DNA of 20,968 bases, taken from contig JAHQWW010000067.1 of the NCBI GenBank assembly GCA_029856365.1, forward strand, positions 1-20,968, given 5' to 3'. Below the pieces are notes generated by a model that had not been told where the DNA came from, did not search any database, and saw only the letters and a list, made by a program, of their open reading frames with translations. This stretch comes from Candidatus Hodarchaeota archaeon (GTDB taxonomy: Archaea > Asgardarchaeota > Heimdallarchaeia > Hodarchaeales > Hodarchaeaceae). A program made the translations under genes and the position numbers. Shown here piece after piece: positions 1 to 12,034 of the stretch; the first letter of the stretch is position 1; every line of letters begins with the position of its first letter.

Positions 1-2549
1 AATGTGCGAGGAAAACGTTGAAAGATACAACTGTCTCGATTTAATGTTTGGATCTCTTTTTGGACTTGAGCAATTCTAAATAGTGTTTCAGCAACTAATT
101 CTTCTCTTTCTAGGAGTTCAAAGACATCAAGCGCTTCTTCATACTGATGGATTGCATTAAAGAATTTTCCTTGAAGGAATAAAGTATGACCTATCTCAAT
201 TTGTGTTTTTGCCTGCGTTTCAGTTTGTACCAAAGTTATGTAATCAGAAAAACCGAATTTTTGAATTTTCAGCGCGGTAGAATAATCTGGTGCTTTTAAG
301 AGAGCTATTAATCCTCTTTTTTGCTTTTCTTTCTGAAATCTAAGTGCTCCAATGACTAGTGGAAAGATACACAGAATTACTACCAATCCCATATGAAAAA
401 TGCTAAAACAGAAAAGGGGGATACTCCAAAAGTCACGGGGATCACTTCCTCCTCTATATTCATCAATATTGAGAACCCAATCTGCGTCTATGTCGTCTGA
501 GGCATCACTGGCGTCGCTTGCATTAAGACCCATTTGGATTTCCCAGAGATCGGGCATTCCATCCCCATCCTTATCATAAGAGGAATATATTTTGTTACAA
601 TATTGTAACTTTGGTGCCGAACTCATTGGATTTAATGAGCCACTTTCCTCAATGTTTTGTATCCAATCTCGGACAACTGTTATCCTGTGGTTTTGACTAA
701 GATAAACGTAAAAACAGTCTTTAGCTGCTAGTTCTTCGATGTCATAATACAGTTGTTGTCTAGTATCAATATTCTGTTCAATAACAGCTTTTTCGATCAA
801 GTTATTCAATTGAATATCGTTTATTTTTAATTGAGTAGAAAAAAATCCATATCTTCCATGTAAATATGGAGTAACGAAATTATCTGGGTCAGCATAGTCA
901 GCTACCCAGCCATTGTAGTACATTGGCATCTCCATAGTCATAAGTGCTTTATCATAATTAACTGGATCCATTGGTTGTAATAAAACTTCAATACCCACGT
1001 CACACAATACAATAGACTTAGCTAACAATTGAAATGCCAAGGCACTTACATCAGACTCTGCACTGTAACTAATTTTGATTGTTCCTTTCCAACCAACCGT
1101 TTTGAAGAGAGCTCTTGCAACCTCTAAGTTATACGTGGGAAGATTTCCATTTTCTATTAGAAGATCATGATGCCCAAACATATTTTTCGGGATAATCCCC
1201 TCCATTTGTTCCGAAATTCCAGTAACCCCTTGATTAATATAAGTAGTGTAATCAAATGCGGTTACAATGGCTTTTCGGAAGAGTAAAGCTGTAAATGGAT
1301 TATTAGGACTTGCAGTTTCATGATTTGAGGCATAACGAAAATGTTCGCTTGCATTATAAGTGGAGGCTACAGATTCTGAAAGAAACTCATTAGACAAAGA
1401 TTCTCTCATATTCATACAAAGAAAAGAATTTTGGAACATTGATGTTGTATAAGCATTCACACCCTCAAAAATTGATTCACCAGTTGATTTGATAACTTTG
1501 GAAGCATCTAAATGCCCTATAAATGCCATATCAGCATCCCCACTTTTAAGGTCTTGGATACGTCTTTCATCATCAGATACAGTCTTAATTTCAATCACAT
1601 CTACCGCATGGGAAGCAAAGGATCCCCACCAATTTGTATTTTTCTTCAAGAGTACAGTATCTTTGTTTAAAGATTTGAGTATGTATGGTCCAGAACCTAC
1701 AGCATTTTTTCCCATCCAAACGTGACCAGCTGGGCCTTGAGGATAAGATCCAGGTACAACACCAGAATTTTTAGGATCAATGTCCCTTTTGAGCCCTAAC
1801 TTTGTTAAATCTGTTAGATCTTCAAACCATTCATCGAGTGGAACCATACCAAAATCATGGTCTTTTACATTTGTATTATAAACGCTTGGTTCGTTTTCAA
1901 TAACAGCTCTTGGAGAAACTGCAGAAGCAACTGTATAAGCTAATGTATGGATAAAAGGGGAGTAAGCAAAATCGAGAATGATCGCGAGAGTGAATTCGTC
2001 TACTACAACAACACCACCGGCATCGAGGTAAGCTAGTGCTTCAGTGACATTAGGATTATCATAAGCCATATAAGCGGCGCCCCCCCTGATTACTTGGGCC
2101 AACATCCAAGATGGTCCATATGGATCAGCCATAAGGATTGCCCGATCAATAGAGTATTTCATAATATAAGCGTTGAAAACAACACCATCATGGAAGGTGA
2201 CGTTATTTTTCAGGTTAAAAAAGTATTTCAAACCGTCTGGAGAAATAATCCACGATGTGGCAAGTTTTCCTTCGATTTCTGCCACAGAGTTTCCCTTATA
2301 ACCGATTAAACCTTCATAAATAAACTCAATGATGGTATTACCATAAGATTCGTAATTAGTCGCAGGATCTATTGGATCTATATACCTTGGACAACCACAT
2401 GTTTCCCAGATAAATTTATTTTGGTTTTTTAATTCCCCAGAAGTAGTTTTTGGAGAGATCGGAGTTGTTACACTAGAAGATACAATAAAAATTGTTATTA
2501 TGCTTAAAATTAGTAGCATGCCTAAAGTTAGATTAAGTTTCTGTTTCAC
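1..2549 (-). CDS. Family-5 ABC-type solute-binding domain fused to Ca-binding-type repeats, a TM helix and a cytoplasmic TPR region (3' end runs off the window; >=849 aa)
   Basis: Translated by hand in segments from GTG at 2549 (alternative ATG 2519); both ends are in the same frame. N-terminal hydrophobic signal (LGMLLILSIITIFIV). SBP_bac_5 hallmarks: DPA..YE..IYEGLIGY, LATSWIISPDGLKYFFNLKNNVTFHDG, AVGSGPY, FRKAIVTAFD, DYADPDNF, RQQLYYDIEELAAKD. Then DKDGDGMPDLWEIQMGLN (575-522), DDIDADWVLNIDEYRGGSDP, TM FSIFHMGLVVILCIFPLVIGAL (~342-422), basic RFQKEKQKR and TPR-like IEIGHTLFLQGKFFNAIHQYEEALDVFE...VAETLFRIAQVQKE. Probably missing from the ORF track because no stop codon lies in the window. 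Confidence 0.92.
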   Translation of the reverse strand, partial: MKQKLNLTLGMLLILSIITIFIVSSSVTTPISPKTTSGELKNQNKFIWETCGCPRYIDPIDPATNYESYGNTIIEFIYEGLIGYKGNSVAEIEGKLATSWIISPDGLKYFFNLKNNVTFHDGVVFNAYIMKYSIDRAILMADPYGPSWMLAQVIRGGAAYMAYDNPNVTEALAYLDAGGVVVVDEFTLAIILDFAYSPFIHTLAYTVASAVSPRAVIENEPSVYNTNVKDHDFGMVPLDEWFEDLTDLTKLGLKRDIDPKNSGVVPGSYPQGPAGHVWMGKNAVGSGPYILKSLNKDTVLLKKNTNWWGSFASHAVDVIEIKTVSDDERRIQDLKSGDADMAFIGHLDASKVIKSTGESIFEGVNAYTTSMFQNSFLCMNMRESLSNEFLSESVASTYNASEHFRYASNHETASPNNPFTALLFRKAIVTAFDYTTYINQGVTGISEQMEGIIPKNMFGHHDLLIENGNLPTYNLEVARALFKTVGWKGTIKISYSAESDVSALAFQLLAKSIVLCDVGIEVLLQPMDPVNYDKALMTMEMPMYYNGWVADYADPDNFVTPYLHGRYGFFSTQLKINDIQLNNLIEKAVIEQNIDTRQQLYYDIEELAAKDCFYVYLSQNHRITVVRDWIQNIEESGSLNPMSSAPKLQYCNKIYSSYDKDGDGMPDLWEIQMGLNASDASDASDDIDADWVLNIDEYRGGSDPRDFWSIPLFCFSIFHMGLVVILCIFPLVIGALRFQKEKQKRGLIALLKAPDYSTALKIQKFGFSDYITLVQTETQAKTQIEIGHTLFLQGKFFNAIHQYEEALDVFELLEREELVAETLFRIAQVQKEIQTLNRDSCIFQRFPRT

Positions 2550-3021: not shown

Positions 3022-4350
3022 ATGGGGTATCTGATGAAAGACAGTATTATAATAAAGATGATTATCATTTTAGTAATAATTGATTTTTCTTTTACATCCC
3101 TGGTGCTTAATGTCACAGTTACAGAACAGGATATAATATATCAAAAAACATTTGGGGGAATAAAACGTGATGGAGCTTTCTCTTTAATTCAAACATCTGA
3201 TGGAGGGTTTGCCTTAGCTGGATTTACACGGTCTTATGGTGCTGGAAATAAAGATGTTTGGTTGGTAAAGACTGATACAAATGGGTTGGTGTTGTGGAAT
3301 AAAACTTATGGAAGCTCACAAAATGAGGAGGCTCGTTCTGTAATCCAAACCGAAGATAATGGTTATTTGTTAGCTTGTTCCACTAATTCATATGATATTG
3401 GTAATGAGGACGTTTGGTTGGTTAAAACTGATGCCAATGGGCTGGTATTGTGGAATAAGACTTATGGGGGACCACGACTTGATTTCGTCCGATCCTTAAT
3501 TCACACTACAGATGGGGGGTTTGCACTAGCAGGATTTACTATTGATTGGATAGACTTTGTTGCGCTAGGGAATGGAGGAGGTGACATGTGGATAGTTAAA
3601 CTCGATGCTAGTGGCAACATTCAATGGAACCAGACCTATAAAGGTGAAAAAGATGAACGAATTTACACAATTATTCAAACTTTAGACGGGGGATTTGCAC
3701 TAGCAGGAAGAACTACTGTCTCTAGTGACTTCAATTCGGAAATATGGTTAGTCAAAACTGATTTCATGGGTCAAATACAATGGAATCAGACTTATCAAGG
3801 CACAATGGATGAAACTGCATATTCACTTATCCAAACCACTGACGAGGGCTTTATATTAGCGGGTATTAGTCAAATACAATTTTCACTTGAATCAGATATA
3901 TTGATCGTCAAAACGGATGTATATGGAAGCGTAATATGGAGTGAAACTTATGGAGGATCAGCTGATGAGTGTACTCATGATATTATCCAAACTGTTGATG
4001 GTGGTTTTGCTTTTGCAGGCTACACAAATTCATATAATACTGGTCATCCCGATTTACTACTCATAAAGATGGATGTAAAGGGAGGAGTTGAATGGGAGCA
4101 AATCTATGGCGAAAAAGAACCAGAGCTTGCTTATTCCCTTCTCCAGACTGCTGATGGTGGTTTTGCAATAGCTGGAATATCTGAAGCTTCTGACATGGGT
4201 GAAGGTGACATGTGGCTTGTGAAAACAAATCCCATATCAGGTGTTGAAAAGCTAGTTGTTTCAGTTCTAAAGCTTAATTACTGGGGAATAATCTTTCTTA
4301 TTATTATTCTCCTTGCCCTGATAATTGTCATTAGGAAACAGAAATTATAG
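3022..4350 (+). CDS. Secreted, C-terminally membrane-anchored beta-propeller repeat protein (7 repeats of ~52 aa)
   Basis: Seven repeats of W-N-x-T-Y-G...S-L-I-Q-T-x-D-G-G-F-A-L-A-G...D-x-W-L-V-K-T-D-x-x-G; N-terminal hydrophobic signal; C-terminal TM (WGIIFLIIILLALIIVI) followed by RKQK. The start may be Met5 (3034). Confidence 0.88.
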   Translation: MGYLMKDSIIIKMIIILVIIDFSFTSLVLNVTVTEQDIIYQKTFGGIKRDGAFSLIQTSDGGFALAGFTRSYGAGNKDVWLVKTDTNGLVLWNKTYGSSQNEEARSVIQTEDNGYLLACSTNSYDIGNEDVWLVKTDANGLVLWNKTYGGPRLDFVRSLIHTTDGGFALAGFTIDWIDFVALGNGGGDMWIVKLDASGNIQWNQTYKGEKDERIYTIIQTLDGGFALAGRTTVSSDFNSEIWLVKTDFMGQIQWNQTYQGTMDETAYSLIQTTDEGFILAGISQIQFSLESDILIVKTDVYGSVIWSETYGGSADECTHDIIQTVDGGFAFAGYTNSYNTGHPDLLLIKMDVKGGVEWEQIYGEKEPELAYSLLQTADGGFAIAGISEASDMGEGDMWLVKTNPISGVEKLVVSVLKLNYWGIIFLIIILLALIIVIRKQKL

Positions 4351-7130: not shown

Positions 7131-8846
7131 TTATTTTACTGGTACCAATTTTGTGATAATCTTACCACAGGAACCACATCGCTCTGGGATATTATGACGA
7201 TCTTTAACTTCAAAAGTGTTCTCACACTCACCACATTTCCAATTTGAGGGAATTAACAGCTCCTGTTCTAATCGGGTGAGAACAGTGGTAAATCGATTTA
7301 GTATTTGATCCATTTTTCCCGTTACATACCCTACCTCATTGGTTTTCTTTAATTCTTGAGGTGAATCTGGGTTTGTCAGGTGTTGTAGATCTTGTTTTAA
7401 GTTTCCAACCTGAATCTTGACCTCTCTTGAATCAGGGATAACTTCAACGACTCCTCTTGCATCTAACCACTCTAGAAGGAATAAAATTTTCTCAATAATA
7501 ATAGTTGCTTGGGAAACAGTTGCTTCCTTCGAGTTAAGATCAATTAGTTTTTGAATTTCTTCTGATAGTTCTCCTAGATAGGTTCCCAAATCTCCTTGTA
7601 GATTTAATTGCCCATATAATCTAAACAAGGTTAGATAATGTGAAAATTGTTTATCAGGATCCGCTTTTACAAGGACTGCACTTGTTATCTCACGAACATT
7701 TTCAGGTTCGCACTTTTGTGTATCTAGTGGTTCCCCAGTTGGTACTTTCCAACGTGAATGAACAACAATTTGTGTTCCTCGAGTATAATTTAAGTCAACA
7801 TACTCCCGATTTTTAGCTGATAAACATTCCCAGTAAGTATAATTTGATTTTTCTTCATTTAATACTAATTGTTCTAGTCCAGAATTACAGTATTTGCAAT
7901 AGGATAAGTCACTATCTTCTGAGCGGTTCATCTTACCACAAGCAAAACAATAAAAATATGTATAATCCGTTGTAAATTTGCCAAACGTTCCCGTTCCTGA
8001 AACTTGAGACTCATCTGCAGCACGACGCATTCGAGAGAAAAGAGAGTCTGAGTCATCAAGCATTGCAGTTAGTGAACCTCCAAGGCCTTCTGCTGCTTCT
8101 GTTCGCTCTTTTTCTTCTTTTTTCTTCTGTAAATAATTTTCTCTTTCCTCTGGACTCATTTTTTCAATCATTTTCAGTTCTTTCACACGATTCTGCAGTC
8201 TATTCCTGTCAGAAGGTGTTAGAGCTTCTAAAAAGTCTTGAGGAAGAGTTTGAATTTCTTCCATACCCATTTCCTCAAAATCAGTACGTAATTCTCCCAT
8301 TGATCCAGGAGGAACACCAACTTGGATAGGTAAAGTAGAATCAGGTGATAGGGGTGGGGGTGGAGCACCAGAGGCAAATTCTTTACCAGGTATAGGTGGT
8401 GGTCGTTGTGATGTTGAGGATACAATAGGTCTAGATACACGATTGATAGCTCCCATGACCCTCTCTTCAAGATTGTCTAAAAATCCTGCTGTTGTCAAAA
8501 ATTTCTCTTTTTGTTCCGCATGAATCTTCTGAATCTCAATTAACAAATGTTCTGATAAAGCGTCCAAGCGTGGGAATAATGATGAGAGAATATCAAACAT
8601 AATCCATTGTTGAATCTCTGAAAACTGACCATAAGGTTCTGATGAAAGCTTCCCCATTTGGGGGTATATTTCTATTGTTTCCATATTTCTCTTCGCCCAA
8701 GACCAAATTGTTGATTTGTTTTTCGCACTACCAAGGAGTGATTCGGCTATTTGGGCAAATGATTCATTATAAAGACGTCTTCTGATTATTTCCTCACGTT
8801 TCTGATTGGAATTCATCTGGAACCATGGAGCCTGAGGATTAGACAT
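7131..8846 (-). CDS. Multidomain protein: N-terminal HTH, coiled coil, proline-rich linker, charged helices, two CxxC...CxxC zinc ribbons
   Basis: HTH-like REEIIRRRLYNESFAQIAESLLGSAKNKSTIWSWAKR; PPPIPG, APPPPLSP, VPPG; E/K-rich helix; CFACG...CKYC (~aa 300-320); WKCGEC...RCGSCG at the C-terminus. Confidence 0.85.
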   Translation of the reverse strand: MSNPQAPWFQMNSNQKREEIIRRRLYNESFAQIAESLLGSAKNKSTIWSWAKRNMETIEIYPQMGKLSSEPYGQFSEIQQWIMFDILSSLFPRLDALSEHLLIEIQKIHAEQKEKFLTTAGFLDNLEERVMGAINRVSRPIVSSTSQRPPPIPGKEFASGAPPPPLSPDSTLPIQVGVPPGSMGELRTDFEEMGMEEIQTLPQDFLEALTPSDRNRLQNRVKELKMIEKMSPEERENYLQKKKEEKERTEAAEGLGGSLTAMLDDSDSLFSRMRRAADESQVSGTGTFGKFTTDYTYFYCFACGKMNRSEDSDLSYCKYCNSGLEQLVLNEEKSNYTYWECLSAKNREYVDLNYTRGTQIVVHSRWKVPTGEPLDTQKCEPENVREITSAVLVKADPDKQFSHYLTLFRLYGQLNLQGDLGTYLGELSEEIQKLIDLNSKEATVSQATIIIEKILFLLEWLDARGVVEVIPDSREVKIQVGNLKQDLQHLTNPDSPQELKKTNEVGYVTGKMDQILNRFTTVLTRLEQELLIPSNWKCGECENTFEVKDRHNIPERCGSCGKIITKLVPVK

Positions 8847-10226: not shown

Positions 10227-10976
10227 ATGTTTGGAATAAATATCATTACAAAAACTGGTATACTCGTCTTTTCTCATTCCTTTTCAGGTGATTTTCTCTC
10301 GGAAATAGATACAGATATTGACATTCAAGCTGGTCTTATCTCGGCAGTATTAAATGCTTTAAAAGAAACACGAGGAGAATCTGTTACTGTTATCCGATAT
10401 AGAGAATATCGACTTTTGTTATATGAGGGCGTCTTGACTTATGGGATTTTATTTGGTTTTGAGGGTCATAATCCAGAACTTCAGGATTTCCTTCGAAGTA
10501 TTGTTTTAAAGTTCGAGCTCATGTTTACTTATGAATTATACAAAAAAACCGTTGTTAATCGGACTGATTTTGAATCATTTCGTGACACTGTCAAGAATCA
10601 GTACACTGCCATGATTGCAATTGATGTCTCCAGTTTAGATAGACTCATCAATATTATGAGAGAATCGAGTATAGAAAACTACATCATTTATGAAACTAAA
10701 CTATTACTTCCTGTCTTTACAAAAATTGTCATTCCAAAAATAAATTCTCATTTACCGCAAGTCACACGCATTTATCGGGAAATATTAAATCTAGAAAATA
10801 AAATCAATCAAGAACATACAACTAGTATAATTAATTTCAAGGGTATACAATTGAATGCCATAAAAATCCCAACCCATTGTGTGGTCCTTTTCTACACTCC
10901 TAAACAAATGGAAAGAAATGTTTTTAAAAAAGAAATCAATCAAATTCAAAGGAAAATTAGGGAAGATATGGACTAG
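10227..10976 (+). CDS. Longin-like domain protein with a second roadblock/longin-like C-terminal domain
   Basis: N-terminal pattern IITKTGILVFSHSF...IQAGLISAVLNALKET.G..V..I.Y....L.LYEG.LTYGILF...ELQDFLRSIVLKFELMF is typical of Asgard longin domains. The C-terminal half (YIIYETK..LPVF...TSIINFKGIQLNAIKIPTHCVVLFY + helix) repeats a similar beta-beta-alpha-beta-beta-beta-alpha layout. Confidence 0.72.
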   Translation: MFGINIITKTGILVFSHSFSGDFLSEIDTDIDIQAGLISAVLNALKETRGESVTVIRYREYRLLLYEGVLTYGILFGFEGHNPELQDFLRSIVLKFELMFTYELYKKTVVNRTDFESFRDTVKNQYTAMIAIDVSSLDRLINIMRESSIENYIIYETKLLLPVFTKIVIPKINSHLPQVTRIYREILNLENKINQEHTTSIINFKGIQLNAIKIPTHCVVLFYTPKQMERNVFKKEINQIQRKIREDMD

Positions 10977-11257: not shown

Positions 11258-12034
11258 TTGGAGTTTAATTTATCTGGAAAACAATTGAAGGAATTCCCGA
11301 AAATTAACCAGTGTGATGAACTAAAGCAACTGATATTGAGCAATAATGAATTAGTGTCAATACCTGATACTATAAGTGAATTTTCAAACTTAAAAACATT
11401 AAAATTGGATACCAACCGTTTAATATCAGTACCAGAGAGCTTAGGATCCTTGAATCATCTTGAAACACTTGTTTTAAGTTTTAATTATATATCTTCACTT
11501 CCTAAGACACTTGGAAATTTAGCAAATTTGAGATTTTTAGAGTTAGAACATAACAAATTAAAAACACTCCCCTTCTTGGTAAAATTCACGAAATTAGTGG
11601 AATTAAATATCTCTGATAATCTAATAACAGTCTTACCAAAACACATTGGTAATCTCTTTATTCTAGAAAAGCTCAGTTTAAGAGACAACCAGGTGAAAAT
11701 TCTACCAAATTCTATTGGTTCACTCAAGAACCTCTGGTTTCTTGATCTATATCATAATCAATTAGTTTCATTACCAGATTCGTTAGGAAACCTCAAATCA
11801 CTACGCGTTCTACTTTTAAAGTCTAATAATTTAATTTCTCTTCCCAATACCATTGGAAATCTTACAAATCTTCAAGAGCTTATCGTACGTGATAATCGAA
11901 TAAATTCTCTACCATTAGAGCTTCTAAATCTTGTTAATCTCCAGTATTTAGATGTTGAATTTAATCAACTTGATGTAAAATCTGAGAAGATTCTTGAAAA
12001 ATTATGGGAGAAGGGAGTTAAAATTCATACTTAG
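11258..12034 (+). CDS. Leucine-rich repeat protein (~10 repeats of ~23 aa)
   Basis: Repeating LxxLxLxxNxLxxLPxxIGxLxx consensus, e.g. LWFLDLYHNQLVSLPDSLGNLKS; TTG start. Confidence 0.93.
   Translation: MEFNLSGKQLKEFPKINQCDELKQLILSNNELVSIPDTISEFSNLKTLKLDTNRLISVPESLGSLNHLETLVLSFNYISSLPKTLGNLANLRFLELEHNKLKTLPFLVKFTKLVELNISDNLITVLPKHIGNLFILEKLSLRDNQVKILPNSIGSLKNLWFLDLYHNQLVSLPDSLGNLKSLRVLLLKSNNLISLPNTIGNLTNLQELIVRDNRINSLPLELLNLVNLQYLDVEFNQLDVKSEKILEKLWEKGVKIHT

Follow-up and report, generated by a model that had tools for sequence, protein, structure and literature searches.

The question raised by this locus is whether a binding protein of the transport type has become the outer part of a receptor, through fusion to a membrane-spanning helix and a cytoplasmic TPR tail. 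The window (the whole stretch of DNA analysed, 20,968 nucleotides) comprises all of contig C78, from a bin of 4.2 Mb that is 84% complete. At its left end a minus-strand frame runs from a GTG at 2549 to position 3, giving 849 codons; since the window is the entire contig, the frame remains open to the contig end and has no stop codon. The first-pass annotation had described this as one long frame with a family-5 solute-binding domain (SBP5), a transmembrane (TM) helix and the start of a TPR region, and Pfam searches and hydropathy (hydrophobic stretches at residues 3–32 and 707–740) confirmed the description. The final 200 codons fall past the contig end and were recovered from a same-species contig, 99.76% identical to the window over 12.5 kb, which encodes the complete protein of 1049 aa (P0002; L004:9971-13120). 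The tail did continue past the window, as predicted, with a full length of about 310 aa where at least 110 aa had been noted. The complete gene was followed on that contig by a gene for a 306-aa membrane protein; neither a permease nor other opp genes lay downstream.

It was possible to check the frame against independent assemblies. A contig from a separate mangrove sample covered window positions 3–2441 without gaps, and two further runs bridged 84–995, which contains the junctions between SBP, stalk, TM helix and tail. No indel, frameshift or misassembly was found at the SBP-TM-TPR junctions across these contigs, nor the stop between the two parts that the first-pass annotation had thought worth checking. 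The features of the protein are collected in Table 1.

Table 1. Features of the fused SBP5-TPR gene and of its flank, numbered on the window unless another contig is named
Feature	Position	Strand	Basis or remark
5' 849 codons of 1049-aa single-pass protein	3..2549	-	SBP5 - Ca loops - TM - TPR
Signal peptide or signal anchor, residues 1-32	2454..2549	-	Hydropathy, alignment
Complete family-5 solute-binding domain, residues ~44-655	585..2420	-	Pfam PF00496, 1.3e-55
GWxAD motif, D551 aligned to E. coli DppA D408	897..911	-	Register of 1dpe match, assuming its last ten residues gap-free
Juxtamembrane stalk, two TSP3-like acidic loops, residues 659-670 and 686-697	414..584	-	Alignment, profiles
Single TM helix, ~residues 715-737, then K/R-rich patch	339..407	-	Hydropathy, model
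Cytoplasmic linker: basic helix, APDY turn, short helix	222..338	-	Alignment, model
First helices of cytoplasmic TPR solenoid	3..221	-	Pfam, model
Two SBP5 genes, circularly permuted, C-terminal anchor, around 7-TM gene	L004:15001-20249	other strand	Beyond window's left end

The outer domain was as complete as had been proposed. The SBP_bac_5 profile (PF00496) matched residues 91–566 over its positions 1–364 of 368 (189.5 bits; cut-off 32.4), the nearest structural matches were of the DppA type, and residues 1–658 were 48% identical to the stand-alone SBP of locus L071. Hydropathy and alignment placed a hydrophobic segment at the N-terminus of all homologues, and this part of the earlier signal-peptide call stood; the clear A-X-A cleavage site that the homologues possess was absent from this strain, and the segment may be either a cleaved signal peptide or an uncleaved anchor. 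In the GWxAD motif, G, W, A and D were invariant among 10 homologues, and the residue of DppA with which D551 is aligned in Table 1 binds the amino terminus of the peptide (PMC3295651). At the equivalent of the DppA R355 loop, the sequence alignment of the homologues contained no conserved Arg. We take R355 to be the position of the carboxylate-binding Arg of DppA, and the lack of a conserved Arg would make a longer peptide or another amine a likelier ligand than a dipeptide. Judged from these residues, and with moderate confidence, the domain is predicted to bind a peptide or other amine-bearing ligand through W548 and D551, with no conserved Arg to fix a dipeptide length.

The stalk was less repetitive than first described; instead of several DKDGDGMPD repeats, it contained one such loop and one degenerate loop. 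Eight acidic residues of these loops (D659, D661, D663, E670, D686, D688, D690 and E697) were invariant among 48 members of the wider family described below, as were, or nearly were, the P, D, Y and A of the linker. The stalk matched MtsD in part (E = 1.5e-5) and TSP3_bac (PF18884) at E = 0.036, below the profile cut-off; going by motif class, the loops are predicted to bind Ca2+. The TM helix was single and followed by basic residues, in agreement with the positive-inside patch recorded earlier. TPR_12 matched residues 779–831 of the truncated frame (E = 6e-5, below cut-off); its scores were 26–31 bits, and in P0011 it exceeded its cut-off. About 12 helices made up the solenoid of the full tail, with a long helix and then a short cap at its end, and the model of stalk, TM helix and tail (pLDDT 88, pTM 0.75) predicted a small helical stalk, a 34-residue membrane helix and the linker, and then the solenoid.

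Profile search and modelling of the full-length tail revealed helical repeats only and no catalytic domain; no MCP, kinase, GGDEF/EAL or cyclase output domain was present, and the full protein stops after the TPR cap with no C-terminal GP-motif longin. The tail model resembled APPBP2 (Z = 15.6, rmsd 4.0, 235 aligned), TSK (Z = 15.6) and PlcR (Z = 14.1), and since no TPR match stood out from the others, the fold points to no partner. A Foldseek search with the tail model returned nothing at E <= 0.001, which is not evidence of a new fold, and Atlas matches to the tail were to generic TPR clusters only. Homodimer prediction for stalk, TM helix and tail scored 0.00, a value that bears neither way on pairing; outside the tail, AlphaFold gave a full-length model of low quality (pLDDT 48), and therefore no inter-domain geometry was drawn from it. 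An intracellular tail agreed with the distribution of N-glycan sequons in the non-SBP members of the family, whose outer parts contained 403 (250 ± 13 when shuffled) and whose tails contained 29 (39 when shuffled). This excess outside, and not in the tails, supports a tail-inside topology for the shared chassis; the fused ectodomain itself was neutral (59 versus 57). With an unbroken frame, a tail placed inside and no permease genes following, the original observation on the fused protein stands.

The membrane-proximal parts of the protein belong to a larger family. A profile of the tail retrieved 69 clusters at E <= 1e-30, and the membrane proteins among them shared a signal, Ca loops, TM helix and tail, beneath outer domains that were WD40 (one or two propellers), NosD beta-helix or unassigned. 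Homologous Ca loops, TM helix, APDY linker and tail, at 25–46% identity, tie the fused protein to these Hodarchaeales WD40/NosD-TSP3-like-TM-TPR proteins, and the stalk-TM-TPR unit serves the family as a chassis, most often for WD40 propellers. The fused protein differs in its SBP5 outer domain, its stalk of two loops and the absence of a longin extension. The WD40/NosD proteins had database names only, and no paper on them was found. Among the WD40 members, P0172 being one example, the W-D of many repeats is replaced by W-N-x-S/T, which makes the signature an N-glycosylation sequon.

The fused form occurred in 9 of 22 Hodarchaeales genomes of the same genus. Ten full-length homologues (1039–1049 aa, 53–83% identical) had the same architecture; their records were labelled Hodarchaeales, Hodarchaeota or Heimdallarchaeota, and some by their submitters as Promethearchaeota or Thorarchaeota, and contig matches placed records of every label within the genus of the window's genome. 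Among 83 genomes of the class, strong tail matches were confined to this genus (15 of the 21 others, the fused form being present in 8), and the chassis family seems limited to one genus-level lineage. The fused proteins, L067 included, formed one clade in the SBP tree (support 100) and in the chassis tree (100/100). Where dS was not saturated, dN/dS was 0.07–0.24 in SBP and tail alike; both halves are under purifying selection. In the window's genome and five others (70–94% complete), the fused protein was the only member of the family found, and therefore it can probably function in the absence of a propeller paralogue; the window's genome, at 84% completeness, yielded no WD40 member.

Among the 15 WD40 loci that could be assessed, an SBP5 gene immediately preceded the receptor gene in the same orientation in 10 and was divergent in one more, compared with a background of 11 SBP5 genes in the 4.2 Mb of the window's genome; the 10 paired loci are not independent and represent about five separate branches, with different SBP subfamilies. 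Given this frequency, the fused gene most likely arose by the joining of such a pair. The fused SBP was sister to the SBP that precedes the WD40 receptor in L071 (SH-aLRT 99), and the two genes of that locus tile the fused protein, at residues 1–658 and 648–1034. The L071 receptor was also the best non-fused match to the tail and its sister in a quick tree (support 86), but a careful chassis tree did not resolve this relationship, and the receptor is a candidate for the exact tail donor. Fusion of an SBP-receptor gene pair is well supported as the origin, and it is fairly well supported that the ancestor was a two-gene unit of anchored SBP5 and WD40-propeller receptor; a deletion would have removed the SBP anchor and the propellers, joining the SBP to the last two Ca loops. 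At L074:11439-13301 (minus strand), the usual SBP5 position before a WD40 receptor was occupied by a gene for a 621-aa anchored surface protein without Pfam match, possibly an unrecognised binding protein.

The first-pass annotation had treated the lack of a neighbouring permease as a sign of receptor function. The absence itself held, since no Opp permease or ATPase lay beside any fused locus examined (ABC genes 3 kb from L067 belong to another class), but it carries little weight: the window's genome contained three Opp-type operons and 11 SBP5 genes, of which 8 lay outside those operons, and none of four close stand-alone SBP relatives examined had a permease neighbour. Several SBP5 genes of the window's genome share a circularly permuted domain order. 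No recurring signalling neighbour of the fused gene was found, its neighbourhood differing among loci. Three candidate partners were rejected: a MinD/ParA-like ATPase, present in six WD40 loci, of which four are one syntenic site that in the window's genome has no receptor; small GTPases in general, for which 59 Ras-family matches in the genome make chance adjacency likely; and a PlsC-like acyltransferase gene beside five fused genes, confined to one subclade. The divergent neighbour in the window (3022-4350, plus strand) encodes a secreted, beta-propeller-like repeat protein with a C-terminal TM anchor, and was not seen recurring beside fused genes.

Evidence on possible outputs came from relatives of the tail, among them soluble Hodarchaeales TPR proteins whose C-terminal half is homologous to it. 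Homologous TPR halves were fused to HisKA/HATPase (P0175), to MarR/wHTH (P0177 and, weakly, P0176) and to a longin (L132); P0175 is a soluble TPR protein with a histidine kinase, encoded at L088:4447-6942 on the minus strand. Three WD40 members (P0136, P0169 and P0172) end in a 165-aa longin-like domain that matched C9orf72-like (TM score 0.62), NPR2 (0.56) and folliculin-like models, as well as an Asgard longin-GTPase fusion. In all three, the domain contained an invariant Arg, which may be the catalytic finger, and a GP motif of the kind reported to be specific to GAP-type longins (PMC12290439). The genes for these three receptors lay tail-to-tail with genes for an Arf-like GTPase and an HTH protein, and an SBP5 gene occurred within about 4 kb of two of them; the chassis has therefore served as an input at this locus at least once, although the three cases may be one event. 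The GTPase locus was spread across the genus (14 of 22 genomes), and its flanks usually held genes for other longin-ended receptors. At G000:C3:523-2278 and in L095, L097 and L130-L137, the HTH and Arf-like GTPase genes were flanked by convergent genes ending in a GP-motif longin, and the inputs on the longins of this module were beta-helix single-pass proteins, soluble TPR proteins and WD40-stalk-TM-TPR proteins.

The window's genome (84% complete) contained the GTPase and HTH genes (on C3) and six or seven distant GP-longins, among them C154:21487-22311 and C150:25776-26822; a search for the sister-type longin gave nothing at E <= 1e-8. A longin-GTPase link for the fused protein is a lead, and would operate in trans. 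It seems improbable that the protein is specifically a receptor for peptide nutrients and that its TPR tail governs, in trans, both a longin GAP of the folliculin/GATOR1 type and the genus-wide Arf-like GTPase/HTH module; if true, this would be surface-to-small-GTPase nutrient sensing in a prokaryote of the lineage nearest to eukaryotes, similar to the regulators that act upstream of TORC1.

Exchangeable ectodomains, pairing with SBP genes and TPR homologues joined to signalling outputs all supported a receptor-like role. The best explanation, with a probability of roughly 0.55, was an enzyme-free, single-pass transmembrane sensor, gated by its ligand and working through a partner in trans. 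Beyond the architecture itself, we infer that a ligand would close the SBP domain; closure might be relayed through the Ca-stiffened stalk, TM helix and conserved linker to the TPR solenoid, which might then change what partner it binds. With no catalytic domain in the tail, output must come from a partner in trans; the candidates, taken from the fusions of homologous TPR modules, would be a histidine kinase, an HTH regulator or a longin of the folliculin/SMCR8 type working on an Arf-like GTPase. Alternatively, the protein could be a transport component, its SBP delivering peptides to an Opp/Dpp permease encoded elsewhere and its tail localising the transporter or reporting flux. The complete SBP with its amine-binding Asp is in keeping with this, as are the three Opp-type operons available in trans to a genome where some of the outlying SBP5 genes must work in that way, and close stand-alone relatives are SBPs of the ordinary kind, with a C-terminal anchor and no receptor gene next to them. 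Nevertheless, transport was considered rather unlikely: no fused locus adjoined an Opp permease, the 310-aa tail is selected like the SBP yet superfluous for delivery, the same chassis bears outer domains unconnected with transport, and the SBP sits on a 57-residue stalk that lacks the S/T linker of many anchored relatives.

Improbable, though with some features to commend it, is an adhesin or structural tether, the outer domain gripping peptides or glycans on cells or matrix and the TPR tail anchoring it to an inner scaffold, with no switch. The stalk resembles the TSP3-type repeats of the cohesion protein MtsD, the sister outer domains (WD40 and beta-helix) are heavily sequon-rich, and WD40, beta-helix and TSP3-like parts are typical of adhesins too; moreover, the accessible part of one report proposes membrane-tethered WD40 proteins as surface structures in the Asgard genome of Nerearchaeum, giving no TPR tail or SBP pairing for them (10.1101/2025.07.22.663070). 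However, solute recognition accounts better for the regular pairing with SBP genes, a stalk reduced to two loops is too short for reaching out, and homologous TPR modules stand upstream of kinase, HTH and longin outputs. That the gene is an artefact of assembly, or a functionless fusion produced by neutral read-through, might be suspected from its place at the contig end of a metagenome bin; junctions bridged by independent contigs without indels, and a single clade (100/100) in 9 genomes with dN/dS well below 1 in both halves, make this extremely improbable. The sensor remained the preferred reading.

Compared with the family-5 SBPs of Opp/Dpp/Nik importers (E. coli DppA, H. pylori DppA 6ofq and archaeal anchored SBPs, e.g., DSAG12_03090 of P. 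syntrophicum, PMC11284389), the fused protein has in common a complete PF00496 domain, GWxAD-x2-DPD, the D408 equivalent, an export signal and a tether. It differs in bearing a Ca-loop stalk and a 310-aa TPR region instead of a bare anchor, and in having neither an adjacent permease/ATPase nor a conserved Arg in the R355 loop. It ranks as a genuine family-5 SBP, though not as part of an operon-type Opp system. A receptor gene with its SBP gene alongside is an established arrangement among SBP-stimulated receptors (BasB/BasT and CosB/CosT of Halobacterium, DppA/Tap, CBP/ChiS and LuxP/LuxQ), among which ChiS and Tap use family-5 SBPs (PMC8050422). The unfused sister loci have the same layout, with the SBP gene beside a membrane receptor gene; however, the four classes listed for such receptors consist of chemoreceptors, kinases and cyclases, whereas the chassis tail is TPR only, and the WD40 outer domain of the chassis receptor has been lost from the fused protein, in which the SBP is covalently joined. 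Binding-protein folds also form the outer ligand domain of BvgS/EvgS, class C GPCRs, iGluRs and receptor guanylate cyclases; BvgS/EvgS and the eukaryotic SBP-fold receptors use other SBP families, with a kinase, channel, 7TM or cyclase as output. The likeness to eukaryotic receptors drawn in the first-pass annotation is one of analogy, nothing in the present data linking the protein to them by descent, and SBP-fused sensors in general showed no sign of common descent with the fused protein. The protein would work much as the SBP-dependent receptors and the SBP-fused sensors do, but having no enzyme or MCP domain, it falls outside both classes.

The fold of the GAP-type longins FLCN, NPRL2 and SMCR8/C9orf72 recurs, together with the GP motif and a conserved Arg, at the C-terminus of the three sister receptors and of a soluble TPR relative, GP-motif longins being on record from Asgard archaea (PMC12290439; 10.1101/2020.10.19.343400); the window's protein, by comparison, has no longin domain. 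Peptide-binding TPR solenoids (APPBP2, TSK/BRU1, LGN/Pins and the RRNPP sensors PlcR and Rap) have the same fold as the tail at 6–15% identity.

A literature search, with most subscription papers outside it, found no paper on the SBP5-TM-TPR architecture. The protein is a real, conserved and undescribed receptor-like protein, in which SBP5 is mounted on a TPR-tailed chassis. Little is known of how Asgard archaea relay external signals to their numerous small GTPases and TPR scaffolds; the propellers that most of the family carry have ligands that cannot be guessed, and since routine ligand assays (thermal shift, ITC) exist for the SBP5 class, the fused member is the most tractable entry to the family. 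It would also represent a case in which a single gene fusion made a transport-type binding protein into the ectodomain of a receptor, and sister genomes still preserve the unfused state. As the family is seemingly confined to one genus-level lineage, it is a parallel to eukaryotic receptors and not part of their ancestry.

Three other genes of the window were recorded. The first (7131-8846, minus strand) encodes 571 aa with an HTH-like start, a proline-rich middle that looks WH2/VCA-like and two zinc ribbons (DUF7130, weak), and its product is possibly a cytoskeleton-related Asgard protein. The second (10227-10976, plus strand) encodes a 249-aa protein whose N-terminus appeared longin/roadblock-like by eye, with no Pfam family and no match to the GP-longin profile. 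The third (11258-12034, plus strand) encodes a 258-aa leucine-rich-repeat protein.
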